A DNA stretch of 64,000 nt from Psammoneis japonica. Its lineage: Eukaryota. Below, one piece after another: positions 1-41,699 of the stretch (positions are counted from its first letter, which is position 1; the number at the start of each line of letters is the position of its first letter). The position numbers and the translations under genes are program-made. The DNA lies in contig QPGO01000152.1 in NCBI GenBank assembly GCA_008632985.1, positions 124,001 to 188,000 of the forward strand, in the 5' to 3' direction. The notes under the pieces were generated by a model. That model saw only the letters and a list, made by a program, of their open reading frames with translations. It made no database searches and was not told where the DNA came from.

Positions 1-218
1 GGTGTGGAATTTGACAGAGTGAACGGCAATGCCGGCTTGAATTTTTTGGGCACCAAAACTGCAAAAAAAGCATTTTTGCAACAGGGGCGGCATTTTTCCA
101 TTGCTGAATTCTTCACATTCTTGCCACTCTCTCTCTGCTGTGTAAATGTGTGGAGAGCAAATTCCAATTTGGTGTGAGTCAGGCCCAAACGACCGTTCAA
201 CGTCTCTGGCGGGACACC

Positions 219-1690
219 CATTGACCACTTGTCTTTCTTTTTGTGGGTGTGGGTGTGCATGTGCCATTGCACGCAGCATTGCCTGCATGTGCGCAGGGCC
301 CTGCTGCCGGGGCTGGCAACAGTGGCAGGGTGGCGGGGCCAACGCACCGGTGACATGGATGACCGTTGTGTTTTGTGGCTCACGCCACCCCTGTGGCAGG
401 GGAGCTGTGCGTGTGTTCGTGGTTGCGCGCACGGCTTTGCCATCCATTGAGTTTTGATGTTGGCACCCACATGCATGTGTGCGTTCCACAAGCAAAAATC
501 CCCATTCCAGCATTTGTGCCCAAATGCACAAACAAATGAGAGGACATTTGTGTAAAAACACAATGAATGAGCCATGAATCTGCCGCGCAACCATGACATC
601 ACCACATTCTCCCCTGCTGCACCACAGGGCGGGGTGGGCTCATGCCATTTTTGGGGCTGTGGTGACGTGCACTGACACTCTTTTTTGTCCAATTTACCAC
701 CAAAATGGTGCATTGCACAAACTTTCTCATTGTTGTTCAACATGTTTTTTTCGAATGTGACCGTTTCGCGTGCAACTCACGACAAATGACATCCATTGAG
801 AGCCCCATGAATTTCCACCATGATGCACCGGCAATCCCAGTTTTACCGCAGTTTTGAGCTCTTCTGAAAAACCGCACTGCGCACCCATCGCAGGGATTTT
901 GTCGCTTTTTTAGGAAGTCCCCCGCGAACCCCAATGTCCCCAATGATCATTCTCACAATGCGAATGACACACCTGCACCAAACAAACCATGCCGTTTTGT
1001 GAATGCCAAGGGACACACTCTCAATCGCCAACATCCCGACCAACCCACCAACTGACTGACTGACTGACTGACTGACACGAAACCAGCCTGGCTGCGGGGA
1101 GCATTGACCACTTGTCTTTCTTTGTGGGTGTGGGTGTGTGTGCGGTTGCGTGCAGCATTGCCTGCACATGCGCAGGGCCCCACCACCAGGCTGGCATTGT
1201 GGCGGCAGGGTGGTGTGGCCACCGCACCGGTGACGCGGACGACCATTGTGTTTTGTGGCTCATGCCATTTTTGGGGCTGCAGCGAGGTGCAGGGACACTC
1301 TTTTTTGTCCAATTTACTGCCAAAATGACGCATCGCACAAACCTTCTTGTTGTTTGACATGTTTTTTGCAACATGACCGTTTTGCGTGCAACTCATGAAA
1401 AATTACATCTGTTAAGAGCTGGATGCATTTTTCACCACGATGCGCTGGCAATCCCAACTTTACTGCAGTTTCAAGCTCTTCCAAAAAACTGCACTACACA
1501 CCCGTTGCAGGGAATTTGTCGCTTTTCCAGGAAGTCCCCACGAACCCCAATGTCCCCAATGACAATTCTCAGAATGCAAATGACACACGTGTGCTAAACA
1601 AACCATGCCGTTTTGAATGCCGAGGGACACACTCTCAATCGCCGACATCCCAACCAACCAACCGACTGACTGACTGACTGACTGACATGA
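219..1690. repeat. Tandem duplication of a ~590-bp degenerate unit (copies ~219-1080 and ~1102-1690), each ending in an (ACTG)n microsatellite
   Basis: CATTGACCACTTGTCTTTCTTT starts at 219 and 1102; 637-1080 aligns with ~1257-1690; (ACTG)n at ~1051-1076 and ~1663-1686; copy 1 carries an extra insertion at 386-636. Confidence 0.85.
386..636. mobile_element. MITE-like non-autonomous DNA transposon with 9-bp target-site duplication
   Basis: Termini CACCCC...GGGGTG with imperfect TIRs; flanks GGCTCACGC (377-385) and GGCTCATGC (637-645); the second tandem copy has the empty site TTTTGTGGCTCATGCCATTTTT; a related end lies inverted at ~1768-1885. Confidence 0.75.
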
Positions 1691-1954
1691 AAAAGTCTGC
1701 AATCACCAACCACCAAGTGGTCAGTGAAAGTCTGCAATCACCAACCACCAAATGGTCAATGAAAAATCCCACCCCTGTGTCAGTGGAGAGTGTGTTTGGT
1801 GATGTCATGGTGATGCATGCTCACGTCATGGCATTTTTGTGTTTGTGTTCATGTGCATGAGACAACATTTGTGCACAAATGCTCACAGTTGCAGGAAAAA
1901 TCCTGAACCATGTGTGCTCTCCCCCAATCTTGAGCTGCCTCGAAGGGACCCCAC

Positions 1955-3306
1955 CAATGGAGACCTGGACATTTAAAAAACGGGAGACAGTGCGCACGCA
2001 CACAGAAATCACAAAATTCTGATTAAAAAAAACAACCATCACCATGACCGTCCATCTCATCCCAGTGGTCTGCATTGATGTTGTTGCTGCACAACACATC
2101 AGAACCCCATGTGTCCGCCATGGGCACAAAAGGCTGCTGATCACTGGTGTGTCACCTTCTCAAGAAGGATGGAACACATCGTTTGATTGCTTGTGCACCG
2201 TTTTGCGGCACAAAGTGATGGTGCATGACAGAGAGATGTGTTTGCTTGTTGACGCCAATTGGCTTGTCTCAGAAATGTGTCAATCTCATCAGTGGATGCA
2301 TGCTGTTGGGAGATGGTGTTCAGTCAGTGCAGCTGATGGATTTGTAGACGGCACAACACTTGGCATGACTGCAGGCATGCATGACAGTGACGGTGCCGGT
2401 CAGTGCAACAAAGCTCCCATCACGTTTTGCACAAGTTGTCCTTGTCATCAATCAAAACGGCACAGGTGCACACGTGAAGAATTTTCAAAATCTGTGGTTG
2501 GCATTGTGGTGCCTCCGCCCGCATGGAGAACAAGGACAAAAAGGGGCTTGTTGACTTGAAACTGCACCACATGGAAGTTGTGTTGTTGATCCAGCCAAAT
2601 GCACTGGCGGCGGTTGGAGCTGCTGGGCCCCAGCAGTGGTGGCAGTGGGAGCCTGTGTGCTGCCGGCACTGGTGGTGGTGGGAGCCTGTGCCAGTGCAGT
2701 GATGCCACTGGCGCTGGAGGTGGTTGGAGCCTTCTGCCACTGGTGCTGGTGGCAACAGGTGCCTGTGCACTGCTGCTGCAGCACTGGTGGCGGTGGGAGC
2801 CTGTGCAGCTGCTGGCACGGGCAGCGGTTGGAGCCCGTGTGCTGACAGCAAAATCAAGGTGGTTGGATCCCATTTGACAGGTGCCTGTGCACTGCTGCTG
2901 CAGCACTGGTGGCAGTGGGAGCCTGTGCAGCTGAAAATCATCTGTGCCAGACCCACCTGAGTTCTTGTTGTCTAGGAAACTGCGCCATTGAGCAAGCGCA
3001 AGCTGGCAACAAGGTCAACTCGACCGCCGACGTGAACGAGCATGTGACACATGGCTTGCCTTTTGGTTCCAGGCTAATTTCATGCACAATCCTTCAATGC
3101 AAACATGTAATGTCAACAACTGCTTCTTTGTGCTGACAATGAAGGAGTTGTTTCACACTGTCTTGTTGTCTCTTACAACCTTTTCTACTGCCTTTCTTGC
3201 AACCGCTTGATGTTGGTGTCGGATCTTTTGATGTTTTGGCATCTTTTTTGGTTTTTTGTGCAGTGCCACACTGTCCCCTGTTTTTTAAATGTCCAGGTCT
3301 CCATTG
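1955..3306. mobile_element. Degenerate TIR element (~40-bp inverted termini) with internal GGTGGCAGTGGGAGCCTGTGC-type tandem repeats
   Basis: CAATGGAGACCTGGACATTTAAAAAAC at 1955 is the reverse complement of the sequence ending at 3306; repeat array at ~2600-2935; no clean TSD. Confidence 0.55.
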
Positions 3307-3329
3307 AGCACTTTTGGTGCTCTCAAGCG

Positions 3330-5915
3330 CCGCAAAAAAAGCACGCGGCACAACAGCCTCACCATGATGCTTTCAAAACATTCATCCCCTCCCACTTCCG
3401 ACGGAAAAGCGACCAATGGCACTGATGATGCTAACACAACTGCAACCGGCAATGTTGCTGAAGTGGCCGTTGCACCCTCATTGCTTCTGAAATCATGCCT
3501 CATTTGCTGACACTCTGTTTTTTTCAGCTCCACAGCCTGCCGCAGCTTCTGGCATGAATGGCAACGCCGCTGATGCCTTTCCCGTAACTGCCATGCCCAA
3601 AACTTTTCCCAACCCAACTGGTGCAAGAGGTGACAATGTCGCTTTGTCTCTCCTTTGCCAAACACTGATGGAATTATTTTGCACCAACTGGCGCCATTTT
3701 CTGTTGCTGCGCAGCACTTTCAACAGCTTCATCTTGCTCTTTTTCAAGGGATGTGTTTTGGTTAAAGTGCCGTTTGTGCTGACAAACAGCTTCAAGGGAA
3801 TGTTTCAATGTGGTCTTGACTTGAACACTCTCAACATGCCACATGCATCCAGTGTTTCATGGCACTTCTTGGTCATGTTTGGCTTGTGTGCATTCTTTTG
3901 CTTGGTTGTTGGAGATCTGTCCCAAGAAATGCAAGAGTCCGTCAAGATTCAGCAGGGACTCAGAACGTTGACAAATGCCCCGGGTGGCCGCAACAGTTCG
4001 ACACTGAATCAGTCTTGAAGTCAGAAGCTGACAACTTGGAGCTCTTGCGGGGGCACAAATCCAACTTGGACACTGTGGAAAAGTGTCTTCTGGACAAGCA
4101 TCACCCAAAGAAGAAGCTTGCCACTGGTGTGGGTCAGCATGATTTCTTTGGGCAGATGTCCTCCAAGCAAGGTGGAAAGAAAAAGTCCTGATTGAAAATA
4201 ATGTGGTGTTGAGTGGCAGGTGTGGTCATGTGTGTTGCACTCATTTCCAAGGAACCATTCAAACATGAACCAAAAATCTATTCTGTGGTGGTCCATCTGG
4301 GTTTGTTCAAACCAGCACTCTGTCTCTCTCTCCAGGTTGTGGACATTTACAATGGCTGTGATGGAATCAAAATTGTCTCCCTCCATCTCCATCTCACTGC
4401 ACCTTGCCAATTGTGAACAGCAAAAGGCAACAAACACCAGCACTGCAGCCAACAGATGCAAGTGACTGGCCATCGGACATGTTCCTTTGTGACAGAACAT
4501 GCCACCAATTTTGCTCAGTTCCAGTGGCATCATGGGAGACGCCCAGTTGCGGGTCGGGGATTGGGCAGCAGGAACTGAATCAGGAGACAAGAAGTGCAAG
4601 TCTTCCGGATCACAAGTCTGCTGCAATTGTGGTGCAATGGGCAGAATGCTGATGTGGGCCACAACATTGGGTGTGGCAAAGTTGCCAAGGGAAGGCCGAT
4701 GCATCAATGGCACTTGCAACAGAAGCAGTGGCGTGCACTGTGGAGCATGAGTGAAAATGGTGTGAGACAGTGCAACAGCACCATTGGTGTTTTTGGCACA
4801 TGACAGCAATGCAAGAGTTGTCACCTGATGGACCGGGCAAAGTGGGAACCGCAACGGGGGTGCAATCAGCCAGAACATGGCTGACAGCATTGGCATTTGT
4901 GGTGGAAGCTGTGGGAGGCGTGCTGCGCAGCAACAGAAAAATGCTGTCAGTTGGCACCAAATGATTCAGCCAGTGTTTGGCCAAGGAGAGACAAAGCGAC
5001 ATCATTGCCTCTTGTGCCAGTTGGATTCAGAAATGTTTTGGGCAGTGTTGACTGATTGCTGGAATTGATTGCAATCAGCCTGTGATTGATTGCAATCGCG
5101 GTTGCAAACTCGATTGCAATGACCTGATTGTTGGGAAAGAGCCAAGGTCACAATCACAATTGACTGTTGCAATCATTTGCAATCAAAATTTGAGCTCTTT
5201 TTGTGGCTAAAATCAGCAAAATGGCTCGATTTCCCCTGCACGGGGGGCGCGCCTGGCCGGTGGGGCCATTGCAATCACGATTGCAATCGTCACACAGTCA
5301 GACCGCGCAATCGCTGCGCAATTGCAATTGACCAATTGCTGCTCCGCAGCGATGCAATCGCCTGGTTGCAATCTGATTGCTGCAGAAAACTTTGCAATTA
5401 GTCAACACTGGTTTCGGGCATGGCAGCTGACGCGTTCCAGCCCTGGGTGGGAGCTCGAAGCACTGACGTGTGACACAAATAATTTTTGTCATCTGTTGCA
5501 TGGTTTGCAAGCACATTTCTACGTGCAACATTTTAAAAAAATTGTCCAGACTCGCTGTTTTGCAAAGCCCCAAACGGTTCATGTGACAAATTTATAGAAA
5601 CAACAATGTGCCAGCTGCATTCTTCAATGTCTGAAGAATGCAACTGGCCAAGTAAAAAATGATTCACTTCAATCATGGGCGAGTTTGTGCGTTCGCAAAA
5701 TTGCCTCATTTTCTGTTGGCGATCATTGACAACTCAGCAAACAAGGTGTAATTTTGGAAGCAACAGGGGTGCGACGGCCACGTCAACAACATCACCTGTT
5801 GCAGTGGGGTCATTGTCATCAGTGCCGTCAGTCGCCTTTCTGTCGGAAGCGAGAGTGGACGAACATTTTGAAAGCATGATGGCAAGGTTGTTGTGCCACG
5901 TGCGGTTTTCACGGT
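3330..5915. repeat. Two inverted copies of an unclassified degenerate repeat
   Basis: ~3340-3510 matches the reverse complement of ~5735-5905; ~3595-3720 matches the reverse complement of ~4920-5045. Confidence 0.65.
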
Positions 5916-6152
5916 GGTGAGATGGCTGTGGGATTTTGATCAAATCAAGCTTGGTGAAGCGATCTGCCCTGCGGGTGCTGTGGCACAGTGCAAACCTGCA
6001 GCAGCATGGTGCCAACATGCACACAATGAACAAAATTGTGCAAAATTGTGGACATTTTCAAAAAGAAATGCTCCTTGTAAAATGTTCAAGAAATTGCATT
6101 TTAACAAACATCAAAAAATGAAAAACCAGCGCAAGCCGGACGCAACACTCTG

Positions 6153-6327
6153 TGCAAGATCTGGCTTGAGATGACTTGACAAAAGTTGTGAGAAACTGAG
6201 GAGAGACCCAATCATCGCTGATGTGGGAACAAACCTGATGGTTCTCAGCATGTCTGACACGTTGGTTAACACACATGTGTCAGAGAGGGCACACTTGGTC
6301 ATAGAGCACATGTGCCCATCTCATTCA
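6153..6327 (-). repeat. Gypsy 3' LTR
   Basis: Direct repeat of 11596-11770; TG...CA ends; adjacent PPT. Confidence 0.93.
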
Positions 6328-6636
6328 CTCTTCCCCTCCATGGTGCAAGGAACACGCGCACCATTGGAACCACTTGACTAAAATTCAAACCACACGCACA
6401 CAGAAAAGGGAACCCAGACGTTGGGAAGAAACCCTCAACTCTGATGCGGCACCACACAATGAACATTAATTTGTTCAACAACGTGCAGTGCTTGCAGCGC
6501 CAAAACAGTCCCATTGGCATGGACTTTTGTGCAATTCAAAATGGACCACAAGCTCATTTTTCCAACTTTGAAGGATCCACCGACTTGATTTGTGCATCTT
6601 GACTGGCTGGACAAGATTCTCATTGATCAATGCCTG

Positions 6637-7420
6637 TCAGTTGGCTTGAATTGTTGCAAGGTCAGTGACAACAGGCAGGTCCAAAATCACATCACATTGA
6701 AACACTAGAGCTCCACCGGAAACACCCACAGATCTTGAGTGGGAGCATCGTAAAGCACAAGAGGCTGAAGCAAGGGCATTGTCCACAATCTGCTTGGCCT
6801 GTTGAACATTCAAAGGTGGGTTAGCAACAACCACAGTGCGCAAGACATTGGCCACACCATCTGGTGCATTCATTCACAAATGGAGTTGGCTGTGGGATTT
6901 TGAGACGTTGTCGGCGCATCAGCAACACCTGCTTGATTTAGCAGCATTTGAAATTCCCAACCAATGAATTCTCCACCATTGTCATGGACACATTGATTTG
7001 GTCTGGGATGACAAGCTAACCAAAGGTTGTGAAACTTGTCAGTCACATGCTGACAAGTTTTGTTGTCAATGCACACGAGTTCAGTCAATCCAGTGACAGC
7101 ATCAATGCAAGTGAGAGCACTGAATTCAATCTCTTGGTCTTGAATTGGTGTTTTCCACGGTCCAATGAGATCAACTGCTGCTTCTGTCCACAGAGCCAAT
7201 GGTGCTTGACGTTGAGGCAACTCTCCATGTCCAGGACCCAATTGTTCAAATCGTTGACACGCATCACAAACAAATTCATCACAACATCAACACAATGCAG
7301 GATGATGCATGTGAGCACAAATGCTTTCATACAATCACACGACTCCACAATGGCCCAATGCAGGATGATGCCATGCAAGGACATCCGGCAACAACGCAGT
7401 GGGAGTGCAAATTTTCCAGG
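6637..7420 (-). pseudogene. Gypsy integrase remnant
   Basis: LAWHHPALGHCG zinc-binding remnant; VDLIGPW, LTCIDAVTGL, HDNGGEFIG and NPTANSICE core motifs; stops and frameshifts. Confidence 0.85.
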
Positions 7421-7849
7421 CTCCAGGCGGATCATTCACATGCAAACGACAACAAATGAGAGGACAATGGTTCACAATCTTGACCACAAACTGCTGCGGA
7501 TTCTGTTGTCTCTGTTGGTTCAGTTGGAGGTCTTCAAACTGGAATTGTTGTGTCCTTGATGTCTTGGTGGGATTTGGCATTTCGTCCAACATTGGACAAT
7601 TCAAAAAGCATTCAAACAATTCAGGCTCATCAAGCAAAGAGGAAACGGCAGCATGAGACTCATCAGAAGGATCAACAGGAGCATGGCAACACTTGAACCT
7701 GCAAGCGCCCAACTCCAAATCTTCTTCTTCCTTGGCCTTGCTCAATTCACTAGAATCCAACTTGTCAAAACGAACAATTTTTCCTTTGCGTTTGCCACTT
7801 GGCCCAAGGCTCTTCCCCTCCAAAGGTGGATCCACGCGGGGCAAACAAG

Positions 7850-9015
7850 AAAAACAATCGGCAAGCACGTTGTCCTTGCCTTTGACATGTTCAAATGCTG
7901 GCGCAAAATCTTCAAGGAACAGCTGCCAACAAAGGACGCACTGTGCATTCAAAGGTGTGAAAGGTGAGATTTTTATGGTCAGTGTGAACAGTGATGTCAG
8001 CACCGAGCAACATTGTGTGAAATTCTTTGAAGCACATGACGATGGCTGGGAGTTCTTTTTCCATTGTTGAGCAGTTACGTTGGGCCGCCGAAAGCTTCTT
8101 AGACCAATGCGCCACAGCTTTGCCATTTTGAACAATGGCTGCACCCATCTGGCAGTCTGATGCGTTGGTGCAGACATGGAATGGTGGGTTGTGGTTGGGG
8201 CAGGCCATCAATGCTTCTGCTGCAATTGCTGTCTTCATCTCTTTGAATGTTTTCTGACTTGCTTCCATCCAATGGAACTGACTCTTGCCTGTCAACTCAG
8301 TCAGAGGTGCAAGTGAGTGAGAACGGCAAGGCCACATGTTGCAACAGCAAGTTGCTGCACCAAGAAACAATCAAAGCTGAGCAGTGTTTCGTGGAGGTTG
8401 CATTCGCAGGATGGCTTTGACCTTTTTCTTCCACAGTTTAACGCCAGTCAGAGCAAGCCAATGCCCCAAGAAATCGGTTTCTTGAACACACCACTCGCAT
8501 TTCAACGGATTAACTTTCAATCCATTCTCCTTGAGACGATGCAGCACCTTGTCAAGACGAGAGAGATGGCAATCAAAGTCAGTGTCAAATGTGCCAATGT
8601 CATCAATGTGGGTTTCAACATCCAAACCATGTGGAATTTTCTCAATGACAGATTGAGCAATGTCTGGAGCTGGCTTCAATCCCACAGCCATGCGGCAGTG
8701 CTGGAATTTTCTGTGGGGAGTTGCAATCGCAGCTGGCTCCTTGCTTTTGTTGTCCAATTCCAAGTTGTGGTAAAACACAGTGAGATCAAGTTTCTTGAAG
8801 AATTTGCAGCCCGCTCTCCGCTGCAGCACATCTTGGATGGCTGGTGGAGGACACACTTTCTGTTTGAGGACCTTGTTGAGCTCATGGAAGTCGGACACCC
8901 ATCGCACTTGGCCATCCTTCTTTGGAGCAACAAAGGTGCCGGCTGCCCATTCTGCAGGTTTACATGGTTGCAGTGCACCAAGATCCACTGGATGCTTCAA
9001 TTCCTTTTTGAACAC
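7850..9015 (-). pseudogene. Gypsy reverse transcriptase-RNase H remnant
   Basis: VRWVSDFHELNK, FKKLDL, HIDDI (from YxDD), DFLGHWL; RNase H VCTNASDCQMGA, VAHWSKKL, EKEL, HTDHKNL, KGKDNVLAD. Confidence 0.92.
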
Positions 9016-9027
9016 TTCTTCATTAAC

Positions 9028-9885
9028 TCAAGCAACAGGAAACGGTTTTGAGTGACACAGAATGGCATTTTCATCCACTTCAAGGTGCACCTTTTCATGA
9101 GGATGGTGGCCCAACATTCTGTCAAATAAGGTTGAATGTTTTTCCAATGCCGCCAGCAGCTTCTTCTTTTGCTCTTCCATCAGATGGTCTAAATTCCGAA
9201 CCACTTCCACAGGATCCGTTGCTTTGCATTTGGCGTCTGGCATGCAGGTGTCACATCCATCGTCACATCTGTAGTTTGACTTGTCCTCACAGTCTTCATC
9301 AAACTCATCCATTTGGTCTAGAGCCATGTGCCAATTGCAGGACTTGGACCAATGACGGGGTTCTTTCATTGGGATCACACTGTCCAGCCATTGTAGCATC
9401 CTTGTGTCGTAACTCAAATTGAGGCCAGTCTTGTCCAAGAAATCTTGACCCAAAATGACATCACACGCACACGGAGCATTGAACACGTGAGCCATGCAGC
9501 CATCAATCCTTCGAGTCTTGTCAAACTCTGGCAACACAACATTGCTCAAGGCCACCCAACGACCCGACTGGAAAGGACCTGCAATGGTTTGAAAGGCTTG
9601 GACTCCGCATTCGTCAACAGACGGCACGGCTCCACGAGGTAGAACTTGGGACAAAATCATTGTGTGAGATCCACCAGAATCTAACAAAACACGCATCACA
9701 TGATTTGACTCATGCCGTTGGATCGATTTTGCAACAAGCAATGCAGATGGGACCAATGCGGTGCGCGAGACTTGCAAGTTCATTTTGGGGAGAGGAATGT
9801 TGTGTTCAAATGCATCTCGATCAAACACATCCCCCTCTTCATTCATGTAATTTTCTGCAGCATTTTCAAATTCAACAGGTGACAA
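9028..9885 (-). pseudogene. Gypsy aspartic protease region
   Basis: VLLDSGGSHTMI active-site motif and DVILGQDFL. Confidence 0.85.
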
Positions 9886-10132
9886 TTCATCAGGATTTTC
9901 AAAACGATCAAAAACAAAACATTCATCATTTCATTCAGGCAAAACACAATCATTCTCATCAACAAATGCTTCTCTTGTGGGCAATTGGGAGCATTCAGCT
10001 CCAGAGCATTCAGCTCCTTTCTTCTCAGAACTGCCAAGGAAACTGCCCATCTGGCTGAAACCTCACCACACCGTAATGTGGAAGGCCTCATCTGATCATG
10101 TCAAAATGGTGCACATCACCACGAGGAGCTTC

Positions 10133-11282
10133 TCAAGCCTGGTTGCCATTCACATTGTCTGCTTGAGCAGCACAGCCGTTGGCCTGACCTTGGCCTCCAC
10201 GGTTGTTGTTTTCATTGTGACAATGTTGACCACCACCTTGGTTGCCATTGTTGTTTTGATGCCCATTGTTGTTGTTGTCATTGTGACAGGTGCCACGACC
10301 TCCTTGGTTCTGGTTGCCACGACCACCAAAGCGTCCACTGCCTCCACGGCCTTGACCACGGCCTCCTTGGAAGCAACCTCCGCCTCGACCTCCACCGCCA
10401 CGGCCTCCTCCTTGACCGCCATGGTTCTGAGGCCCATGACAGTTAGGGTTGTTTGGATTGTCATGACACTGGCCCCATGTGTGCCATCCATGGTGCCACA
10501 GGACCGGACACAGATCACTTGCCTTTGGTTGGCTTTTGCTGTCCTTCTTGTTGCGGTTGCCCTTTTTGTTGCTGGAGTTCCCCACAATGCCGTTGTTGGA
10601 CTTGCGTCATTTGTCATCTTGACCGTTGGAAAAACACCTTCTTGTCACTCATGCAGGCTTGAACATCCACCATTGAATCTGCAACAAGGTTCTTGCCCAC
10701 ACGAATGTAAGACTGCTGCCAGGTCAAAGGGAAGGTGTAAAAAATGACATTTTTCTGCTCCTGCTCTGTAAGTTCAGGAACAGTTCCAGGCAAATGGTTG
10801 GCATGACAAAACAATGTTTCCATGTGATCAATGTGAGTTTCAGATTCTGCTGAGCAAGGCTTCTTGCAAGCAGGCAAATGCATCTTCATCGCATCGCAAG
10901 CTGTCAGTTTCATGCAGCACAGACAGTGGGCCAAGACAGCCTGATTAAATTGGGCTGCCGTTTGCTGATTCTGTTGGATGTTCGCGGCAACATTCTGCCA
11001 TTTTGCCTCTGCAGCACCTTGGAGACAATCCTCCAAAGCATCAAACAACTCTGTTCCGGCATCACAGTCCAGCCGTCTTGCTGCCTTCTGGAACCTGTCC
11101 TCCATGTGCAACAATGATTCAATTCCATGCTCTCCTGTAAAAACAGGACACATTTTTGAAAGTTTAGCACCATCATCAAAAGTTTGAGTGAGTTTCACTT
11201 CTTGTAATTCAGAATCCACGAATTTGGTCTTATGCTCAATGCACGCTTTCTCCAAGGCTTCTTGATGCATGGCAATGAACAA
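10133..11282 (-). pseudogene. Gypsy gag remnant
   Basis: Lies between the 5' LTR and the protease; CPVL..HGWHTWGQC knuckle-like motif followed by an RGG/Asn-rich tract. Confidence 0.7.
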
Positions 11283-11595
11283 TTTCAGCGATCAAACAAT
11301 CAACAATCCACAAGATGAACGAAACAAGGCATTCCCAATTGATCCACACAATGAGAACAATCAATGACTAAACAACAACAAATTCAACAGTGGCAACACA
11401 AACTTCGAGTTCAAACAAACGCTGCTCCAAATTGCCAATTTCAAGAGCACAATTGCACTGCAACTCCAATCGACTTTGAATGAAATTTTCTGCACAAGCA
11501 CACAGACAAATTTTCTCTCTTCTCAACAACACTCTTCACATTGTCATAAAACTGATGATGCAATGAACAAGCCACAACAATGACTGCAATTACAG

Positions 11596-11770
11596 TGCAA
11601 GATCTAGCTTGAGATGACTTGACAAAAGTTGTGGGAAACTGAGGAGAGACCCAATCATCGCTGATGCGGGAACCAACCCAACGGTTCTCAGCATGTCTAA
11701 CATGTCAGTTAACACACACACATCAGAGAGGGCACACTTGGTCATAGAGCACATGTGCCTGTCTCATTCA
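11596..11770 (-). repeat. Gypsy 5' LTR
   Basis: Direct repeat of 6153-6327. Confidence 0.93.
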
Positions 11771-12054
11771 CTCTGAAACAAGCCATCGGAGCTCAAGTTG
11801 ATGTTGGCCAGTTGCACAGAATGCATGCTGGACATGCACCAAGGAAAACCCAGACATGTGGCCAACTTTGGCCAAAGCTGGACACAACAAGGTTGCTGCA
11901 GATCTGTGCAGAGAGCCAGGGGTGCTGTCTGTGGGATGCAGGAGATTGCTTGTGCCTGCATGTGCATTTGCTTGTGCGCGAATGTTCCCTTCTCAATGCA
12001 TGTGATGACATCATCACACATCACACACAACCACATCCCACAGTGCCACTGACA

Positions 12055-13966
12055 CCACTTCCAGTGTGTTCCTGTGGCCTCTGCGGAGACTTTGAATCAT
12101 TGCACGCCAAATTTTGTGGGGCAGAGCTTTTTCAACGCATGGATCCAAATCTGCACCATGCACCGTGTTACAGCACAGCACTGCATCTTTTCAAAAATCA
12201 ACATCTGTCGGTGTTGTCAATGCCACCCATGCGTTGCAAGGCATGTCGCAATGGTGCATGTCCACTTTTTCTTGCTCCTCTTGTCATTGTCAATGTTGGC
12301 TTGATCTGCCATTCTCTTCTTTGATGCATGCTTTTTTGTCGCTTTTTCAGATTTTGCCATGAAATCCGTTCTGAACGCTGCTTTTGCACTCCCCTTTGCT
12401 CTTTGGTCTGTAGTTCACTTTCTGCATTTTCGGCACTCGGCTTTGGCTCGGGCATGGGCAACCTTTTTCACGAGATTCTTCCATGTGTGCTTCAGTGATG
12501 CAATGGTCAATCGTTTGCTGCTGTTCTCTTGGGCTGTTTTCAAGAAGGAGCGTTGCAAAACCTTGTCTCCCATTGCCTTCCCCATGCAGAAGTGAAGAAA
12601 ATCATTGCCACGACATTCAAAAGCTTTTGCGTCACAGTGTCCCCGCACCTGATGCAACAGTGTCTTTGCAACTGTAAAACAAGGTTTGGAAACCAAGGCA
12701 AGCCAACCCATGTTTTGACTTTGTTCTCCTTGTGAACAATGGTCACTCATGTGATCATTGTCCAATGTTGCTTTGTTGTGAGTGGCATTTTGATTTTGGA
12801 CTGGAGACGGCCGCCATCATTGACTCCTCAAACAACAAAAGAAGATCCCCCATCATGTGTTGACATGACACATTGAAGGTGAGCCCATCTGCATGGTTCA
12901 TTGTCCAAACAGCCTTGAACCAGTTTTCATTCACAGTGTGTACACTGACCCTTGCGATCTTCTGAAAATCATCATCGTTCTTCAACAGTCCATCATGTCT
13001 GGCTCATTAAAATGGGCTCAGTGGGGATTTCGGCAGCATTGCTTGGCATTCCTCTCAAGACTCAGTGGCACTGCCGTGTCTTTCCCTTGGCAGCAATTGC
13101 CGGTGAGAACATTTCTGTTTGTTCTGTGTTCATGTGTTCAATTTTGTTGCCTCTCTTGAAGCCTGTGTCGAAAACAATGTTCTCACTGCTTGCATCCCCC
13201 CTTCTCTTTTTGGCCTCCCACTGCAACTGCCGGCAGCTGCTTGCGGGGACGACATCTGCTGAATGACCTGGCGTGACAGTTCACAGGTCGTGGTTTGATG
13301 TGTGGCTTGGCATGATCAAGGCGAGAAAAAACAACGAATGCGTCCGATTGTGAAAGATGGAACAAGGAGAGCTGGCTGTCATGCACCCACAGGGTTCTGT
13401 CACAGTGTGCTCTAAATGTCCCATCAAAAGATTCACCCCACAGCATCAGACAGCATTGGGAGTCGCTCATGCTGACAATGGCAATGTTGGGATCTCAAAC
13501 GGATCTGGATCGGGCATCAGCATGATGTGATGCATGATGGTGCGACGGAAAAACCGCACCGCAACAAACCACCTGCACACAACTCTGGTCTCCTTGCGTG
13601 ATTTTCACAAGGCGGGTCATGTTGCGCTTGTTGGATGCCAAGTGTGCAGAATGTGTCACATTGCACTTGTCACCCAAGTTGCAAATGCAAGCCTTCTTTG
13701 CCTTCCTTTTTGTGTCGGTTGCAGCCTTGGTGTCAGGTGCCATTGCACTGAAAATTCACAAATGAAACAAAGTGGCTCTGATGGCAATTGCATCCATTTT
13801 GTTGTTTTGTTGTTCCGTTGACAGCAACATTGATGCTGATTGTCAAGTGCCATTGTGGTGCAGTGTTCAGAAAAAAATCAAAAATTTTGAAAAGCTCCGC
13901 CCCGCAAAATTCAGCATGCAAAAACTCGAAGTCCCCGCAGCCAATGCACAATCATGCTGGAAATGG
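12055..13966. mobile_element. Degenerate DNA transposon with ~110-bp imperfect TIRs
   Basis: CCACTTCCAG...CTGCGGAGACTTTGAATCATTGCACGCCAAATTTTGTGGGGCAGAGCTTTT from 12055 is inverted at ~13860-13966; decayed internal minus-strand ORF fragments; no clean TSD. Confidence 0.6.
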
Positions 13967-14791
13967 GAGGCCCGCTGGCAACTGATCTGACGCTGATTGA
14001 ACAAGGACAAATTGTTGAAGCCTGCGGTGGAGCCTGTGCAGCCCCACCTGTCCTGTTGTTTAATTGTGTGTCCATGATGCAAGCCATCGCAAATGCAGAC
14101 TGCGACCCGCATCTGGATTCAGTGCTGGGGTGGGGGTTCAAGAATGGTCACATGAAGAAAGACCAAGGGACAACACAAACACAAACACAATCTCACTTTC
14201 TTTCAATCAAATGCACACCACAGCACTGTCTCAGTTTTGTGGGCACGTCACATCCTCCAGTGCATGCCCAGTGTGGTGTGTGGGGTGACGCAAAAATGGC
14301 AACAGCAGCATGGTGTTTGAAGCAGACACCAAAGAAGGCATCTCCAAATGCTTCAAAAGCACATGTGGGCAACCCAGGGCTTGAGTGTCCATTGGTCTCA
14401 CACAGGAGTCAAAAGGAAATTTCTTGCAATCACTGTGTGCTGGCCCTGCTGATGGAAATTGAAGGCAAATGGCAAGAATTCAAACAACAACTCCTCACTG
14501 CTGTCTAAACAGCAGATGAGTCTCCGCTCAGAGACCGTTGCAGGAGCCAAAAGACGTGCAAGTCGGTGTGATCGGGCTGCTGTTGTCATTCTTGTGAGCC
14601 TTGTGGCTCGAAAGCAAACTACATCGCGCGCGAACGCGCGGAACTAAAGCACACAAAATTGTGCGCGGTAAACTAAACAGCGCGCGACATTTCGCACGCA
14701 CCCAAATCCTGTTCAAATCCTGTCACTCCCCAGTTTGCTTGAGGAGTCACAGAAACAGATTCGACTTCGGATTGACTAAAGAACTTTGGAG

Positions 14792-16465
14792 TCAAAGCAC
14801 CAAAACATGAGGAGACAAGAAAGGATCAAGATCCAAGAGCAATGTTGCATTCTCCAAGTGGGTCATCTTGAGATGAGCTGCGTCTCCCCAATTGCAGATG
14901 CCGTTGTGCTTTTCAAAGCTCAAGGCACACTTGGGATCTTGTGGGATTCCACATCTGCACTTGCAATGGAAGGAGCAAAGCTTGGTCTGGTTGACAATGT
15001 TGAACGGCGGGGCAACATTGCAGGCGGCATGGCGTTTGCACGACTCGGGGAACAGAGCAAGCATGAGTTCAAAGGCACAAGCGGTGGTCTTGTGTTCCAC
15101 CAATCTGATTGCAAGCTCAGCTGCATCTCCTGAGAGACTGATCCAATTGGAGAAACGAGTCTCAAGGTGCAAGCCTTCGGGGATCGGATTGGAGCAAGAC
15201 ATCTTGCAGTGCAAGGCTGCAGATGTCTGATTGGGGCAACCAGTCCCGTGCTGCAAGACTTCTGGGATCCAAAAGGACTTGCCAGTCTTGTGACACGAGT
15301 CTTCGGGGATCCAATCAGGAGGCCAAGTCTCGTGGCACAAGACTTGAGAGATCCAATCCGGAGGCCGAGTCTTGAGGTATGAGATGTGGAGGATCCAATT
15401 GGGAGGCCCGGTCTTGAGGCACGAGACGTGGAGAGTCCAGTTGGGAGGCCTGGTCTCAGGGCACGAGACTTGGGGCATCCGATCAGGAGGCCCAGTCTCG
15501 ATGTACGACACTTGGGGCATCCAATCAGGAGGCCCAGTCTCGAGGCACGAGACTTGAGGCATCCAATCAGGAGGCCCAGTCTCGAGGTGCGAGACTTGGG
15601 ACATCCAATCAGGAGACCTGGTCTCGAGGTACGAGACTTGGGGTCCCCAATCAGGAGACCTGGTCTCGAGGTACGAGACTTGGGGCATCCAATCAGGAGG
15701 CCCAGTCTCGAGGTACGAGACTTGGGGGATCCAACCAGGAGGCCCAGTCTCGAGGTACGAGACTTGAGGCATCCAATCAGGAGGCCCAGTCTCGAGGTAC
15801 GAGACTTGAGGCATCCAATCAGGAGACCTGGTCTCGAGGTGCGAGACTTGGGGCATCCAATCAGGGGGCCTGGTCTCGAGGTACGAGACTTGGGGCATCC
15901 AATCAGGAGGCCCAGTCTCGAGGTGCGAGACTTGAGGCATCCAATCAGGAGGCCTGGTCTCGAGGTACGAGCCTGTGCAAGGGCTGCAATCCTGCACTGG
16001 GCCGAGGTTGCTTGCAGGCGGGTTGGTCAAGACATGTGGGGCGCGACTGACACCACTTCTAGGGGACACCTGAGTGGCGGCACAGTGCAAGGCTGGTGTC
16101 AAAATGGCACTGGGTTCATCTGGTTTGGATGGCAAGGGACTCGGCACAGGTGCGGAGGGTGCTGCGCCAGTGGCTAGAGAGGTCAAGCAGTCCGGACCAA
16201 GGCGGCAGTTGCGAAATTCCTCGGGTGTGAGCAACTGGGGTTCATTGGTCACATCATCACCGTTGCAAACTTTGACAAAGCAGAAGCTGATCAAAGCTGC
16301 TAGGAGGTTTCTGTGGGTCCATGGCAAAGGCACTACATTGGCGCCGTCTCTGTAAGTGAGGGTGTCAATTTGGGTGGGTAAGAACGTGAACAATTCCTCG
16401 CACAATTCAATCCCGTTGATGGACAGGGCAGAACGAAGAGGGCTGTCATTGTCTTGATTGAGCAC
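14792..16465 (-). CDS. Copia-derived ORF: gag-like N-terminus, ~20 14-aa repeats, pre-RT fragment (expression unknown)
   Basis: 557-codon open frame; DSPLRSALSINGI...IDTLTY resembles diatom Copia gag starts; C-terminal CGIPQDPKCALSFEKHNG..NWGDA resembles the segment preceding Copia RT. Confidence 0.5.
   Translation of the reverse strand: MLNQDNDSPLRSALSINGIELCEELFTFLPTQIDTLTYRDGANVVPLPWTHRNLLAALISFCFVKVCNGDDVTNEPQLLTPEEFRNCRLGPDCLTSLATGAAPSAPVPSPLPSKPDEPSAILTPALHCAATQVSPRSGVSRAPHVLTNPPASNLGPVQDCSPCTGSYLETRPPDWMPQVSHLETGPPDWMPQVSYLETRPPDWMPQVSHLETRSPDWMPQVSYLETGPPDWMPQVSYLETGPPGWIPQVSYLETGPPDWMPQVSYLETRSPDWGPQVSYLETRSPDWMSQVSHLETGPPDWMPQVSCLETGPPDWMPQVSYIETGPPDRMPQVSCPETRPPNWTLHVSCLKTGPPNWILHISYLKTRPPDWISQVLCHETWPPDWIPEDSCHKTGKSFWIPEVLQHGTGCPNQTSAALHCKMSCSNPIPEGLHLETRFSNWISLSGDAAELAIRLVEHKTTACAFELMLALFPESCKRHAACNVAPPFNIVNQTKLCSFHCKCRCGIPQDPKCALSFEKHNGICNWGDAAHLKMTHLENATLLLDLDPFLSPHVLVL
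15130..15971. repeat. 42-bp tandem array (~20 units, ~15 well conserved) encoding SYLETGPPDWMPQV on the minus strand
   Basis: Unit GGCATCCAATCAGGAGGCCCAGTCTCGAGGTACGAGACTTGG repeats with period 42 and decays toward 15130. Confidence 0.95.
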
Positions 16466-18577
16466 AGTGCCTAGAATGCATTTGAAGCTGTCGGTTTGTT
16501 GCTGTCATGTGAGAACCATGACGGAGGACGGTGCAGTAGAAACAAAAGACAGGATCCAATCTAGAGCGCGATCTTGACTGGGAGTTTTGACTTGGAACTT
16601 GGCTTGAAAAAGACTTGACTTGAGCCAGACTTGACTTGAAATCTTGGACTGTCCTAAAATCAGAAGTCGCCGGGCTGTGCTGTCCCATTTGTTGTCAAGT
16701 GCTGAGCTTCCTATCCGGTCCGTAGAGTTGTGCCGGCACGTCCGAACCCGCAGCCAGCGGCGCTTTGGGTTGCTTACGAGTGGAGCAGCGGGTTGTAAAC
16801 CCCTGCAGGCAAGCTGACTAGAGGTGGACAAGACCCCCGAACCGTTCTTATTTTACATCGGTTGGATTTCCCGATCAGGCTGGCCAGTTGACGTAGGCGC
16901 AGGTGCTGTGGACGAACGAACAAACGCGGGAAAACACCCTCGCCCCAACGCAGGCTGCAATCACGGCTGCTTGCTCTCACAGTCGTCCTCGTGGACCTGG
17001 CAGAACTGCAGAGCACCAGTGGTCCGGGGCAGATCAGGTACAATGGACTCGGCGTGCTTGCAGAGTGGCAGCAAAGCTGCAGTCCAAAGAGTGGGTTCAA
17101 GTCCTTGGCCGTGAAGATGTGTGTGCACACATGTCTTCAGCGACGGAGATCCTTGAACATGTGGGGTTCTTGACCGTTAACCGTTGAATGGGCAGGGCCT
17201 GTGTCACGGGATGAGGATCAAGGATGGGCTTGGATGTGACCGTTCAATGCATGTCTTCAGCGATCAAAGGTGGCATGATCAATCCAGATGTCCAGCGGTG
17301 AGGAGACTTGACGGTGACGTTAACTTCCTGCCGATGCCCTGGCATTGGATGCGCGCAGACTTGCCGATGTGCGTAGAACATGTGCGGAGGTCCACGCAGA
17401 ATTGAGACAGTGCTGTCGGCAAATCAACGACGACGATGGCGGTTGCTCAATGGGTTGACAATGAGCAAGACTGTTAATCTGACAGAAATTGAAGGCAAAT
17501 GGCAAGAATTCAAACAATGACTCCTTGCTGCTGTCTAAATGGCAGATGAGTCTCCGCTCAGAGACCGTTGCAGGAGCCGAAAGACATGCAAGTCGGTGCA
17601 ATCGGGCTGCTGTCATCATTCTTGTGAGCCTTGTGGCTCGAAAGCAAACTGCATCGCACGCGAACGCGCGGAACCAAAGCACACAAAACTGTGCGCGGTA
17701 AACCAAACAGCGCGCGACATTTCGCGCGCACCTGAATCCTGTTCAAATCCTGTCACCTGCGCTGCCTCTCTTCTTTGAGAGCAGCAGGGTTGTTGCAGAG
17801 CAAGCTGCCTGTGCCAGGAGACAAAAATGCATGAGTGCTGCTGGCACTGCTGACTGAGCTGTGGCTGCATTGTGCACACATGCCAGCATGCTCTGTGCTC
17901 TGCAAAAATGAGACAAGAGCACAAAAGAGCTTGTGACCAGAGCTGGCACTCTGCAAGAGCGGCTTTCAATGATGATGATGCACGGCAAGCTCAAAGAGCT
18001 CCTGCGGGGCACTTTTGTCAACTTTTTGGATTGGAAGACAAGAATGCAGTGCTTGACAAGTTGTTGGTGTGAGAACACAGAAAAATGAGATGCGACAAAA
18101 ACCACCAACAAGTGCCAGCAGGTTCTGAAGTCTGCGGAGGCACCAGGAGGTTTGCCAGCCATTCTTGCCACAGCACCAGTGCTTTTCTAAAACTGAATGT
18201 TTGCGCACATCACAAGAACAAAGCAAGAGACAAGACACTCTTTCACACGTGCATGTAGGAACGAGGGCGGCTGCGAAAGCACGCACAGCGAGGCGCTGAC
18301 AGTGACTGGCTAGCAGGGGGTCAGACGGTCGGTGATGCGATGACGTTTCGTGCCTGAAGACATGGCCTTCAGTCGTCACTCTCGCCAGTTATTTACAGTG
18401 ACAGACGCGGCAGACAGCAAGACGATCGTTTTCCCGCCATGTTATGTATGCGTGTACTCAACCGCATCAACGCGAAGTGATGGTGAGATGTGAAGATGGG
18501 TGAGTGCCGTGAAAACACTCGGCACTCGGCACATCCATCGCAGAGCGCAACTGTGCCAACACTGTAAACGAAACTAA

Positions 18578-35005: not shown

Positions 35006-38000
35006 TTATAAGACTCATGGAGAGGTCACTCGCAATCAATACCAACAGCAACTACCGGTAAGTCTTTGTTTCGAGCGAGGCGTCATCGTCATCGTCTCGT
35101 CGTGTGGCTCTTGTGCAGTGCGCGCATCGCGCTGTTCGAGGTGTTGCTGGTGTTGTCCGTGTGTCTTGCTGACAGCATTTACTTGTGCTTGGGCTGGGCT
35201 AGCTAGCTGCCATCACTTTGAGTTTGCTTGTCGACTTGCCCTTGCCATTGTCGCCATTGAGAGACCACCCAAAAACAAGCAACCCTCTTTGAGGACAAGC
35301 TCCATCCCTGAGTGTGTTCTTTTTTCCCAGTGGTGCTTTTCTGGAACTTGTGGGCCGGGGGTGCAGGCATCTGGGTGCAGCAGCAAAAATGGTGATCCAC
35401 TTTTTTGGTGAAAGTGGTCCCATGTGTGCATGCTCTGCATCACAACCCACCCCAACTTCTAGTCTCCTCCTCTCTCCTCTGCAGTGCTCATGGCCAAGAC
35501 ATGGAGGGGTCATCATGTTGTGGACGTGGGTTTTCTTGATGTCATGAACCATGTCTCTCCTTCCTTGTCCCTGTGAGCTGTTGTGAACAGTGTGCAGAAG
35601 CTGTCTCAATGCTGTTGTCAAGCAGCAGCTTTGTCAGAGAGAAAAGAGGAGGGAATCCACGCACATGCAATGGTGCAGCAGTGTTCATGTCATCAAGGCA
35701 ACAACTGTGCCATGAACCATGAAGTGCTTGAACGAAAAATGTCCCATGGACGCCACGGCGACAGCTGGTCAACTGAATCTTTGGCTGTGTTTGAGATGAC
35801 GGGTCCAAGTTTTCTGAGAAAGCTGTGCCAGGGAATTGCACCATGTTTCGGCCAGTCTGCATGTCGAACAGCAGTGACTCTTTTGACTTTGCAAAGATTC
35901 ATGATTTGCAGGACGATTGCATTGACTGGACTTTGTTCCTTTCTGACACAATGCTTTCTTGGATCAATCGATGAGTGCCACACACTCCATCGCACACTCC
36001 GCACAGCAACATCACTTGACCGAACTGCAACAATTCTCCAAAGAAGTCTCTGGAACCTTTGCTCAGAAACCCTTCAATCTTGGTGCGGATCCCAAGCTCG
36101 CATCCAAACCCACACATTGCAATGCCCATGGTTCCACAACTTCTGCCTTTTCCATGCAGATCGAGATGCTCACACTTGTTGTAAATGTGCAAAACGCAAC
36201 TGTTTGGAGATTCTGTGTCAAATGATGTGCCATTTTCATCCTTTGTCTCCATGTCAATTAAACATGGCAATGTTGTTTCATTGTCACAGTCGGCAAAACT
36301 CTCACAAAGCCAAAGTCTGCCCAAGTTCATGTCAAACAAATTTGCCTGAAGTCCAGTCTTTTTGTCCATGACATGAATGCGAGTGGGACAAGGACACTGT
36401 GCACAGTGATGCACTCCCTTGCAGCAGGCAATGATTCTGCCAGCTCTGCTTTCCTCTTCATGACAGCATTCAAAGGGTGGAAAATGACAATCGTTCTCGT
36501 CAAAAAAGTCTGGCAAATTCAAGTGAAGAACAAAACCACTGTCTTCAGTGTTTGTTGCCATCTGACAAGTGTCTGCAAAGGCGCATTGTGTGGTGAAATC
36601 ATTCAACAAACATCCGTCCATCTCGATGATGAGCGCGCATTTGGTGGCATTGAGTTTGGCACCACATCCCGGATCTGCAGGCCCAGGCAGCGTTGCTCCT
36701 TCCAACCTTTCTTTTTGGTCCTGATCATGAGTTTTCCGGGTGTCAATTGCCTCAACTCGGTCGTGAATCCTTTGCCTCAAGAGTTGTTTCCAGTCAATGT
36801 TGTCATTGCTGCTGCTGCTGCCCTTGTCATCTACTCCTTCTGAAACAAACCTGACTTGTGCTTGCAAGATGGGGGCGTGCTGCTTGCATCCAAACTGCAA
36901 ATCACCCAAAGGAATCTTCTTGTCATGAGAAGAGCACTCCAAAAGTGTGGTCACAACTTCCTTGACAAACTCCTTTTCAGAAATCTCAAATTCATTTGTT
37001 GGATTTTTGTCTTCTCGGTGGGTGGAGCAGGGGAGGTTGTGGATGCCATTTTAAAACTTGAGACAGTGTGTCATGGCAACAGGGAAGCAGCAAAAGACAG
37101 GCTTCAGGATGATGCTGTGCTGGCAAAAGGCAAATGGGGCCTGCTGAAGCTGAGCAGCAGGATGATGTTTTCAGTTTCCAAGATGATGCCGAAGTCTGGA
37201 AGTCTGGCTGAGTGCTGCCACGTTGAGCGTGTGGACGAACGTGCGTGCAGTGCAATGACTTGTTGCTCGACCTGCACAATGAATGGGGTGGACATGTTCT
37301 TGCACACCAGCAGGGGGTGGGTGATGATGTGTGCAAATGGACAATGTTCAACTCATGCATGCTGCGTGCCAAGCAAATGCACCCAAGTGCACTCATCTCT
37401 GACAGCTGTTGGCATCAGAAAATCATTGAATGTTGTGCACACTCTCCAAGGGAGTCATTTTCTCAGCAGGCAACTTCTGCCACCATCAGTCTTGCCAGTG
37501 CTGTCTGTGCGTGTTTGTGAAACTCTGCGCCACTTCGCATCACCACCACTTCCTTGGCTTGGTTGACAGGCTCGCCCCTTGCTGTTCCACACATGCCCCC
37601 ACAGGGTCCTCAGGCTGTTTGCTTTGTGACTTTCAAAGTTTCCACATTTGACATGACTTTTGGAGTTGCCCTTGCTTTGTGTCCTTCAAAATTTCCACAC
37701 CCAGCACAACTTTTTGAGCTGCCCTTGTTGTTTTCATCAGCTCAGCACCCCAGTGCATCAATGCTCAGAGCCCCTCCCCAACTCCTCCTCTCTGTGGCAA
37801 CTGATGCTCATGGCCAAGATTTGGAGGTCATCATGTTGTGGATGTGGGTTTTGCTTTACCTTTTGTGCCATGATTCTCTGTCCTTGTTGTTGTGAGCAGC
37901 ATGCAAGCAACAACAAAGCTGATTTTTGCTTGCCAGGTTGCCACATTTTCAGAGAGAAGAAGAAGAGGAAACTCACAATGGCAACTTGGTGTGCTGCTTG

Positions 38001-41250: not shown

Positions 41251-41699
41251 ACAAATTGTGAGAAGACAAGAACACAACAGCTTTGGTGTCAGAAAACGGT
41301 TTTGCCATGTTGTTTGCATGGGCCCACCTTTTGGCCCCTTGTTTGTGGTCACTTCTCTTGTGAGCTCCTCTGTCATCAGCAGTCTTCATTGCAAAATGCT
41401 GTGTCTCATTTGCTGTTGTCTCCCTTCACCAATCCAGCCACAGGGACATGTTGAGAATGCAACAAAACCACAACAGGCATTCTCTTGTTTGCTTGTTGTT
41501 TTTTCTCACAACAGTGAGAAGACCACAAGAGCTTCTCAGCTGTTGCAAGCCTTGCACTCTACAGAGCCTCCAACAGCTGAGCTGGCCACACCCTCAACTT
41601 GGTTTGTTTGTGGTTTGCAGCTCTCTTGTCTGCACCTTGTGTGACATTGGCGCACAATCTGCTGCAACTTCAAACACATTCCTGCAACAAGATTGGCTC

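Follow-up and report, generated by a model that had tools for sequence, protein, structure and literature searches.

We analysed 64,000 nucleotides from the diatom Psammoneis japonica (contig QPGO01000152.1 of assembly GCA_008632985.1, positions 124,001 to 188,000; hereafter the window). It carries a degenerate Ty3/Gypsy long terminal repeat (LTR) retrotransposon whose pol gene has lost nearly all of its conserved tyrosines. The cause of this loss is regional and no property of pol: in three blocks, which sliding windows delimit to 28,952 of the 64,000 bases (45% of the window), the dinucleotide TpA has almost disappeared and CpA and TpG have risen. We consider it probable, at roughly 80%, that a region-restricted and strand-symmetric process changes TpA to TpG or CpA in the repeats of this diatom after their insertion, and that a separate decay of CpG takes place alongside. 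A first-pass annotation had noted the replacement of Gypsy tyrosines by His or Cys and had explained it by mutation at TpA. The observation is confirmed as real and the interpretation is supported, two of the ten motif positions aside; the extent of the effect, the accompanying CpG decay and the timing after insertion go beyond what it had described.

Conserved tyrosines of a Gypsy pol gene have become cysteine or histidine

The retrotransposon comprises the following features.

6153..11770, minus strand: degenerate Ty3/Gypsy LTR retrotransposon of 5618 bp, recognised by its LTR pair, target-site duplication and the domain order protease, reverse transcriptase, RNase H, integrase
11596..11770, minus strand: 5' LTR of 175 bp with TG..CA ends, pairing with the 3' LTR
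6153..6327, minus strand: 3' LTR of 175 bp with TG..CA ends
6148..6152 (left copy) and 11771..11775 (right copy): 5-bp target-site duplication CTCTG, read off the sequence
6328..6339, minus strand: polypurine-tract-like run GGAGGGGAAGAG (element strand), abutting the 3' LTR and named from its position and composition
10614..11291, minus strand: presumed gag open reading frame (ORF) upstream of pol, named from its position only
9028..9930, minus strand: N-terminal part of pol with the aspartic-protease motif LLDSGGS (tblastn match to residues 9-637 of the relative P0121 over 9867-7951)
8371..9027, minus strand: reverse transcriptase, with HIDD as its YxDD motif (RVT_1, E = 3.3e-17)
7912..8370, minus strand: RNase H domain with five Tyr-to-Cys/His positions (RT_RNaseH_2, E = 2.5e-23)
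6870..7961, minus strand: frame-shifted integrase region, interrupted by two TGA stops (rve, E = 2.8e-5, under the Pfam cut-off; tblastn match to residues 634-993 of relatives)

Two TG..CA LTRs with a flanking target-site duplication and the order protease, reverse transcriptase, RNase H and integrase, with RVT_1, RT_RNaseH_2 and rve matched in sequence, are the hallmarks of Ty3/Gypsy elements, and by tblastn the element is colinear with relatives of 1077-1142 aa that have those Pfam domains. Its protease motif LLDSGGS corresponds to FDSGGS in the consensus of the relatives. Neither the N-terminal pol piece by itself nor the presumed gag ORF has a Pfam match. The copy, the only one of its family within the window, is dead: pol contains six in-frame stops, every one TGA, and frameshifts near 7955 and 6855, its YxDD motif reads HIDD, and intact coding capacity is gone.

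A search with the pol piece as query (X at stops) found 288 relatives, and the 120 that were listed share 37-57% identity with it. Of these 120, 76 are 1000 aa or longer, and the first 60 of them were aligned with the two in-frame pieces of the element. Tyr is the residue of at least 60% of these 60 relatives at 22 columns; there the element retains a single Tyr and shows Cys ten times, His nine times and Phe twice. Of 419 columns with other conserved residues, Arg excluded, it preserves 338 (Fisher p = 1.4e-13 against the Tyr columns). Conserved Arg survives at 8 of 26 columns and has elsewhere given way to Cys (7), Gln (4), a stop (3), Lys (2) or His (2). Most of the remaining replacements amount to one transition at TA or CG, for instance Leu to Pro (6), Val to Ala, Ile to Val and Pro to Leu (4 each), and Asp to Asn and Ala to Thr (3 each).

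All nine motifs on which the first-pass annotation was built were found on the minus strand where it had placed them. Eight of the ten tyrosine positions that it took to be conserved are so, with Tyr in 41-60 of the 60 relatives: HIDD (55), AGC (59), ACPNHN (54), VCT (41), SDCQ (52), VAH (51), RNC (60) and ACHPRP, where Tyr stands under His in 59 relatives and Arg under the adjacent Cys in 58. The other two are naturally variable. Relatives have Tyr (33) or His (26) at the FLGH column and Tyr (24), Phe (18) or His (13) at the VHTDH column; since many of them carry His there, His is natural at both. Thus, the possibility that intact relatives naturally carry His or Cys is true of two positions out of ten and false of eight. 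As had been claimed, the change strikes the catalytic motif: the YxDD tyrosine, present in 55 of the 60 relatives, is a His encoded by CAC at 8608-8610.

The fate of individual codons agrees with a loss of TpA. Among the 1037 codons of the element there are 4 TTA, 4 CTA, 1 TAT, 4 TAC and no ATA or GTA; TTG, GTG, GCA, TGY and CAY are raised. Codons that contain TA thus number 13 of 1037, whereas long ORFs at 55 of 78 related loci have 96.7 per 1000, and T|A codon junctions number 8 of 339, compared to 24.4% in relatives. The region 6870-9015 has 11 TA where 89-107 are expected (Poisson p < 1e-25), and the whole element has 45 where 235-283 are expected.

TpA is lost across whole blocks, in coding and non-coding DNA alike

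The depletion extends over three blocks.

1..18200: TpA-poor block 1, repeat-rich and containing the Gypsy element; TpA odds ratio 0-0.19 in 500-base windows
35250..45000: TpA-poor block 2, also the most CpG-poor; TpA 0-0.14 and CpG 0.03-0.42 over 35501-45000
51030..52250: TpA-poor block 3, small, with five TA in 1.2 kb

Exceptions within block 1 are 15501-17000 (TpA 0.27-0.43) and 18001-18500 (0.28). The TpA odds ratio is 0.09 in the blocks and 0.59 elsewhere, that of CpG 0.38 and 0.97; CpA (1.78 vs 1.16) and TpG (1.71 vs 1.13) are higher in the blocks than in the rest of the window. The remaining 12 dinucleotides differ by 0.81-1.24 fold between blocks and rest, and base composition is the same. 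The edges are sharp, a few hundred bases wide, and adjoin genes of normal composition. Judged by the positions of single TA, the edges of block 2 fall at 35204/35460 and 45004/45169, and its border window 35001-35500 has TpA 0.33 and CpG 0.53. The edge of block 1 matches the drop of repeat depth in sequencing run X1 (see below) to single-copy level at ~18010.

Of the 1604 stop triplets in the blocks 229 are TAA or TAG, as are 1156 of 2531 outside. Because these two are almost gone, long overlapping ORFs occupy all six frames of 1-18200 and 35250-45000. When the 62 ORFs of 110 aa or more in this TpA-poor DNA were compared with Pfam, 60 had no match; the only two hits were a fragment of an EMC3-like gene (described below) and one sub-threshold domain of unknown function. 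Non-coding DNA of the blocks is depleted in TpA just as much.

The depletion depends on sequence context. Relative to the gene regions, TA survival is 0.03 in ATA/TAT, 0.10-0.13 in GTA/TAC, 0.18-0.20 in CTA/TAG and 0.25-0.30 in TTA/TAA, with values that are symmetric between reverse complements. Targeting of WA of the polymerase-eta type was considered as well and rejected, AA and TT being undepleted (1.11 and 1.09 fold).

TpA changes to CpA or TpG after insertion and on both strands

Run X1, used as Logan contigs with a word depth of ~35, yields related contigs by the thousand, of which 10,071 were placed on the window. They differ from it at 1124 transition and 263 transversion places. At the 40 best-supported differing sites (there are 1398 others), TA in the other copies faces TG or CA in the window in 13 cases and the reverse is true in 1; CG in the other copies faces TG or CA in the window in 11 cases and, again, the reverse is true in 1. 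The direction proposed by the first-pass annotation, from TA to CA or TG, is thus backed by other genomic copies of the repeats in addition to protein conservation and codon fate.

LTRs are identical at integration, and the differences between those of the Gypsy element therefore arose after insertion. They amount to 12 events: five doubles, in which CA in one LTR faces TG in the other, two TA-type, three CG-type and two other changes. A second LTR-like pair (14449-14726 and 17479-17756) has seven doubles, three TA-type, four CG-type and one other. Pooled over 453 columns, this makes 12 doubles, five TA-type, seven CG-type and three other events, so that in these young pairs TA/CG-type events stand to all others as 24 to 3. 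A CA-vs-TG double is one ancestral TA or CG that has mutated independently in both copies, on opposite strands, and therefore places the change after insertion, on chromosomal DNA and on both strands. Nine alignable repeat pairs inside the blocks have 46 such doubles, whereas two alignable control pairs outside have none among 42 events; one of ten block pairs and one of three control pairs, with tandem-overlapping copies, are omitted from these counts. The coding strand shows no bias either, with ten Tyr-to-Cys and nine Tyr-to-His changes. Neighbouring CA/TG doubles in the repeat pairs gave no signal of a shared strand (same orientation 23, different 15; p = 0.26), and neither did runs tests on the CA/TG order, with z between -1.34 and 0.07 in blocks and controls alike.

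Eight contigs of X1, each 287-480 bases long, are identical to the window sequence. Seven of them lie in block 1, and one covers 7980-8314, which contains six of the codons that the first-pass annotation had picked out. These exact contigs exclude an assembly or polishing error.

Other Gypsy elements with normal, TpA-poor or CpG-poor sequence

Seventy-eight related elements from metagenomes have TpA odds ratios of 0.42-1.08. TpA poverty is therefore not native to the family; the 78 loci are the best-scoring matches found via intact peptide motifs and are uninformative on how common the decay is. Other Gypsy pol ORFs of 424-751 aa, filed in public data as hypothetical proteins, are Tyr-free or Tyr-poor and show the same replacements at the same columns: P0157/P0243 from JGI/IMG (Cys 10, His 4, Tyr 3, Phe 2), P0248 (Cys 7, His 10, Tyr 0), P0310 (Cys 5, His 3, Tyr 0) and P0287 (His 6, Cys 3, Tyr 1). 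In three ordinary relatives that served as controls, Tyr persists at 14-15 of 16-19 columns. The Tyr-poor ORFs look like TpA-decayed elements that have stayed open through the removal of stop codons by the decay.

Transposons of diatoms can be CpG-methylated, and the CpG loss in the blocks is read as ordinary decay of methylated cytosine, with the TpA loss as a separate process. This reading follows from cases in which either loss occurs without the other. P0248 has no Tyr at 19 Tyr columns and keeps Arg at 20 of 22, whereas two metagenomic Gypsy loci have CpG odds ratios of 0.11 (L070) and 0.27 (L075) with normal TpA (0.76 and 0.81); judging from these two, some hosts apparently undergo CpG decay alone. 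Within the window, the 28 one-kb windows with TpA of at most 0.2 span CpG values from 0.06 to 0.75.

Proposed process and alternative explanations

In the model we propose, repeated DNA would be mutated after insertion or duplication from TpA to TpG or CpA, that is, by an A:T to G:C transition at either base, most strongly in ATA/TAT and most weakly in TTA/TAA, and in the window this process would be near completion. A second process would act on the same blocks and change CpG to TpG or CpA, the usual fate of methylated cytosine. Together they would abolish Tyr (TAY to CAY or TGY) and the codons ATA, GTA, CTA and TTA, turn CGA into TGA and remove TAA and TAG. In the Gypsy element they would have wrecked YxDD and disabled the element permanently, with its LTRs and target-site duplication still recognisable. 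The comparisons above establish the direction of the change, its timing after insertion, its action on both strands of DNA, the sharp edges of the blocks and the dependence on flanking bases; that the process is enzymatic and serves as an active genome defence we infer. Its chemistry may be enzymatic adenine deamination in 5'-TA-3', by analogy with what has been proposed for the chlorarachniophyte Bigelowiella natans (see below). On a broader claim our judgement is evenly divided, namely that diatoms have a dedicated TpA-directed DNA-editing defence, either an adenine deaminase or a thymine modifier, which is recruited to repeats independently of cytosine methylation and erases TA until transposons are dead.

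Several points weigh against this account. TpA and CpG depletion are correlated over 64 one-kb windows (r = 0.83), so that within this genome a single shared cause is possible. The CA-vs-TG doubles in the LTRs cannot tell a TA from a CG ancestor. The excess of the TA/CG-type rate over background, roughly a hundred-fold, is a rough figure as only three background events enter it. Run X1 probably comes from the assembled sample and thus adds no independent biology beyond excluding assembly or polishing errors. Finally, repetition as such need not be the target, since part of the blocks has single-copy depth (72 in the bin 4003-4669); what is targeted could instead be a chromatin domain, or these parts could be old repeats that are now more than 15% divergent.

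The same process could rest on a different chemistry, in which the T of TpA is alkylated, or modified or oxidised to 5-hydroxymethyl- or 5-formyl-uracil by a TET/JBP-type dioxygenase, and then pairs with G to give T to C. Oxidised thymine can mispair with G. TpA being its own reverse complement, sequence cannot separate adenine deamination from thymine modification: all results fit T to C on either strand equally well, and the bias towards ATA could be one towards T with A on both sides. We nevertheless regard thymine chemistry as the less probable route, given that the only experimental precedent reads the signature as adenine deamination, a reading that is itself unproven (10.64898/2026.01.13.699255, main text). 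A single dual-specificity deaminase of the ADAT2/3 type, responsible for both CpG and TpA losses in the same silent domains, would explain why both depletions share blocks and are correlated, and ADAT2 enzymes that reportedly deaminate both A and C in DNA are cited in the same preprint. It is difficult to reconcile with the separation of the two decays in P0248 and in L070 and L075, with the wide range of CpG among windows that are uniformly TpA-poor, and with B. natans, where 230 of 231 mutations in viral regions are A to G or T to C, all of those at TpA (10.64898/2026.01.13.699255). For these reasons we think it distinctly unlikely.

The remaining explanations have far less to recommend them. 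If the RNA or cDNA of retrotransposons were edited before integration by an ADAR-like or APOBEC-like enzyme and the edits copied into the genome, the LTRs would not have diverged chiefly at these dinucleotides, with CA and TG arising independently, the strands would not be struck equally, and block DNA that is no retroelement (the EMC3 fragment, tandem repeats, spacers) would not be affected. The preference of ADAR-type enzymes for U before the edited A, which the discussion of the preprint mentions, does little to make such editing less improbable. An artefact of sequencing or assembly deserves mention, modified bases being able to give transition-type miscalls on some platforms; it is scarcely credible in view of the read-derived contigs of depth ~35 that match the window exactly at eight places, the same Tyr-to-Cys/His pattern in other public data sets (P0157/P0243, P0248, P0310, P0287), and frameshifts and an LTR pattern that fit real decay. 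There is almost nothing to be said for a family that natively avoids TA and functions with His or Cys in place of Tyr, or for selection having removed TA. Two motif positions are indeed naturally His in some relatives, but the other eight have Tyr in nearly all or most of them, the DNA of related elements has TpA of 0.42-1.08, the pol gene carries six in-frame stops and at least two frameshifts, and non-coding DNA is equally depleted.

Comparison with known systems

TpA-specific hypermutation has been reported for nucleocytoplasmic large DNA virus (NCLDV) and virophage DNA integrated in the genome of B. natans (Mettrop et al., bioRxiv 10.64898/2026.01.13.699255, April 2026). According to the main text of this preprint, 230 of 231 new mutations in giant-virus and virophage regions are A to G or T to C, all of those at TpA, and the de novo rate of TpA to TpG/CpA, seen in some lines only, is ~6e-7 per site per generation, ~1000 times background. 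TpA-poor coding sequences of B. natans are enriched in reverse transcriptase and DDE domains, and the explanation offered by the authors, itself unproven, is an ADAT2-like enzyme that deaminates adenine. Their cut-offs (TpA at most 0.43, CpA+TpG at least 1.52), which marked the extreme 5% of the Bigelowiella genome, are passed by 27 of the 64 one-kb windows here.

As far as the preprint describes it, the B. natans process shares with ours the conversion of TpA into TpG or CpA on both strands; in our blocks TA is, CG aside, the sole dinucleotide to fall, and CA and TG are the sole ones to rise. It likewise is confined to regions of foreign or silent DNA with local boundaries amid an otherwise normal genome, acts on chromosomal DNA after integration, as the LTR-LTR differences indicate here, and leaves low TpA with high CpA+TpG as its long-term signature. 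The host, in contrast, is a chlorarachniophyte (Rhizaria) there and a diatom (Stramenopila) here; the targets are viral inserts there and LTR retrotransposons, other repeats and a host-gene fragment here; and TpA is 0.45 in the NCLDV region there but 0.09, near saturation, here. CpG decays alongside TpA in our blocks, whereas the term CpG is absent from the preprint's main text, in which we also found no counterpart to the ATA/TAT preference. De novo mutations were observed in B. natans, while our process is known from sequence comparison alone. The words diatom, Phaeodactylum and stramenopile do not occur in the main text of the preprint, and in the literature we found no report of TpA-directed decay in diatoms. 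Going by its signature, the decay is best filed as matching the TpA hypermutation of B. natans, a kind described once before, here saturated, in a new lineage and on transposons.

Like repeat-induced point mutation (RIP) of ascomycete fungi, the process inactivates repeats in place by point mutations that are dinucleotide-specific, affect both strands and have fairly sharp edges. Its polarity is opposite: RIP turns CpA/TpG into TpA (PMC2621366), whereas here TpA is destroyed and CpA and TpG are made, and the blocks show the reverse of the TpA excess and CpA/TpG deficit that RIP leaves (TpA 0.09, CpA 1.78, TpG 1.71). RIP also drives DNA AT-rich, while base composition is unchanged here.

In vertebrates and plants, methylated CpG decays in silenced transposons. 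Such decay accounts for the CpG to TpG/CpA part of our observations, namely Arg to Cys, Gln, His or stop and the TGA stops; it cannot remove TpA, and the two losses dissociate in P0248 and in L070 and L075. APOBEC3 and ADAR edit RNA or cDNA, on one strand and before integration. Theirs, too, are deaminase-type transitions that inactivate retroelements, but the changes here occurred after insertion, are symmetric and include DNA outside retroelements, with neither a single-strand bias nor edits shared between LTRs.

If our reading is correct, a mutational genome defence known from the single 2026 preprint would extend to diatoms, which are major primary producers, and the window would display how the process ends, in repeats whose TpA is down to about one seventh of normal. 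If diatoms do possess a dedicated editing defence, as in the broader claim above, it would together with Bigelowiella be an opposite-polarity counterpart of fungal RIP that is ancient or recurrent in the SAR (stramenopiles, alveolates, Rhizaria) supergroup. It would have shaped a large share of diatom genomes and flooded gene predictions with long, stop-poor false ORFs. In DNA such as these blocks gene finders will over-predict, and apparently decayed elements are filed as proteins (P0157, P0248, P0310, P0287); in such genomes, dating of elements by LTR divergence will be badly wrong. The hierarchy ATA/TAT > GTA/TAC > CTA/TAG > TTA/TAA, the independence from CpG decay and the sharp edges offer testable handles, and low TpA, high CpA/TpG and Tyr-free pol genes could serve as a screen for any genome or metagenome.

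Other repeats and genes in the window

Two further features of block 1 were delimited.

3491..4015, plus strand: fragment of a host-type gene of the EMC3/TMCO1 family (Pfam EMC3_TMCO1, E = 4.7e-11)
14449..17756, no strand assigned: very abundant repeat unit of 3.3 kb, bounded by 278-bp direct repeats (92% identical) and containing a 42-bp tandem array

Compared to human EMC3, the gene fragment shows the same Tyr-to-His/Cys and Arg-to-Cys changes as pol (SWY/SWH, GLR/GLC, IYS/FCL). It is enclosed by inverted repeats within 3335-5909, which pair 3335-3510 with 5734-5909 (77%) and 3594-3730 with 4905-5044 (81%). X1 depth over 3335-5909 is about five times the single-copy level, and the fragment may have been captured by, or duplicated with, a mobile element. 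At 4001-4500, TpA (3 sites) and CpG (2 sites) are both almost gone. Most of this interval lies in the bin of single-copy depth mentioned above (4003-4669, X1 depth 72), and it is either a very old repeat or a place where the process spreads into unique DNA.

Summed X1 depth over the unit 14449-17756 reaches ~118,000, compared to 60-100 in unique DNA, which ranks it among the most abundant repeats in the genome. The tandem array within it is covered by at least 15 overlapping copies of 300 nt (15159-16046). The interior is less TpA-poor (0.27-0.43) than the flanking DNA, and a 570-aa ORF in the unit has no Pfam match.

The window is nuclear DNA. Its genes include a 583-aa intron-free ORF for eIF3d, with best matches of 72-74% identity and with named matches that are diatoms: 68% to Seminavis, 65% to Epithemia and 64% to Mayamaea. 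The others are ordinary for a eukaryote and encode, among other things, a patatin/NTE-type esterase, kinases, an MFS transporter and a ubiquitin hydrolase.

Finally, block 2 contains direct repeats at 40038-40678 and 43766-44221, which are ~72% identical and 3.6 kb apart. They may be the LTRs of an old element without recognisable coding domains, and one segment pair of these repeats has seven CA/TG doubles in a single orientation.

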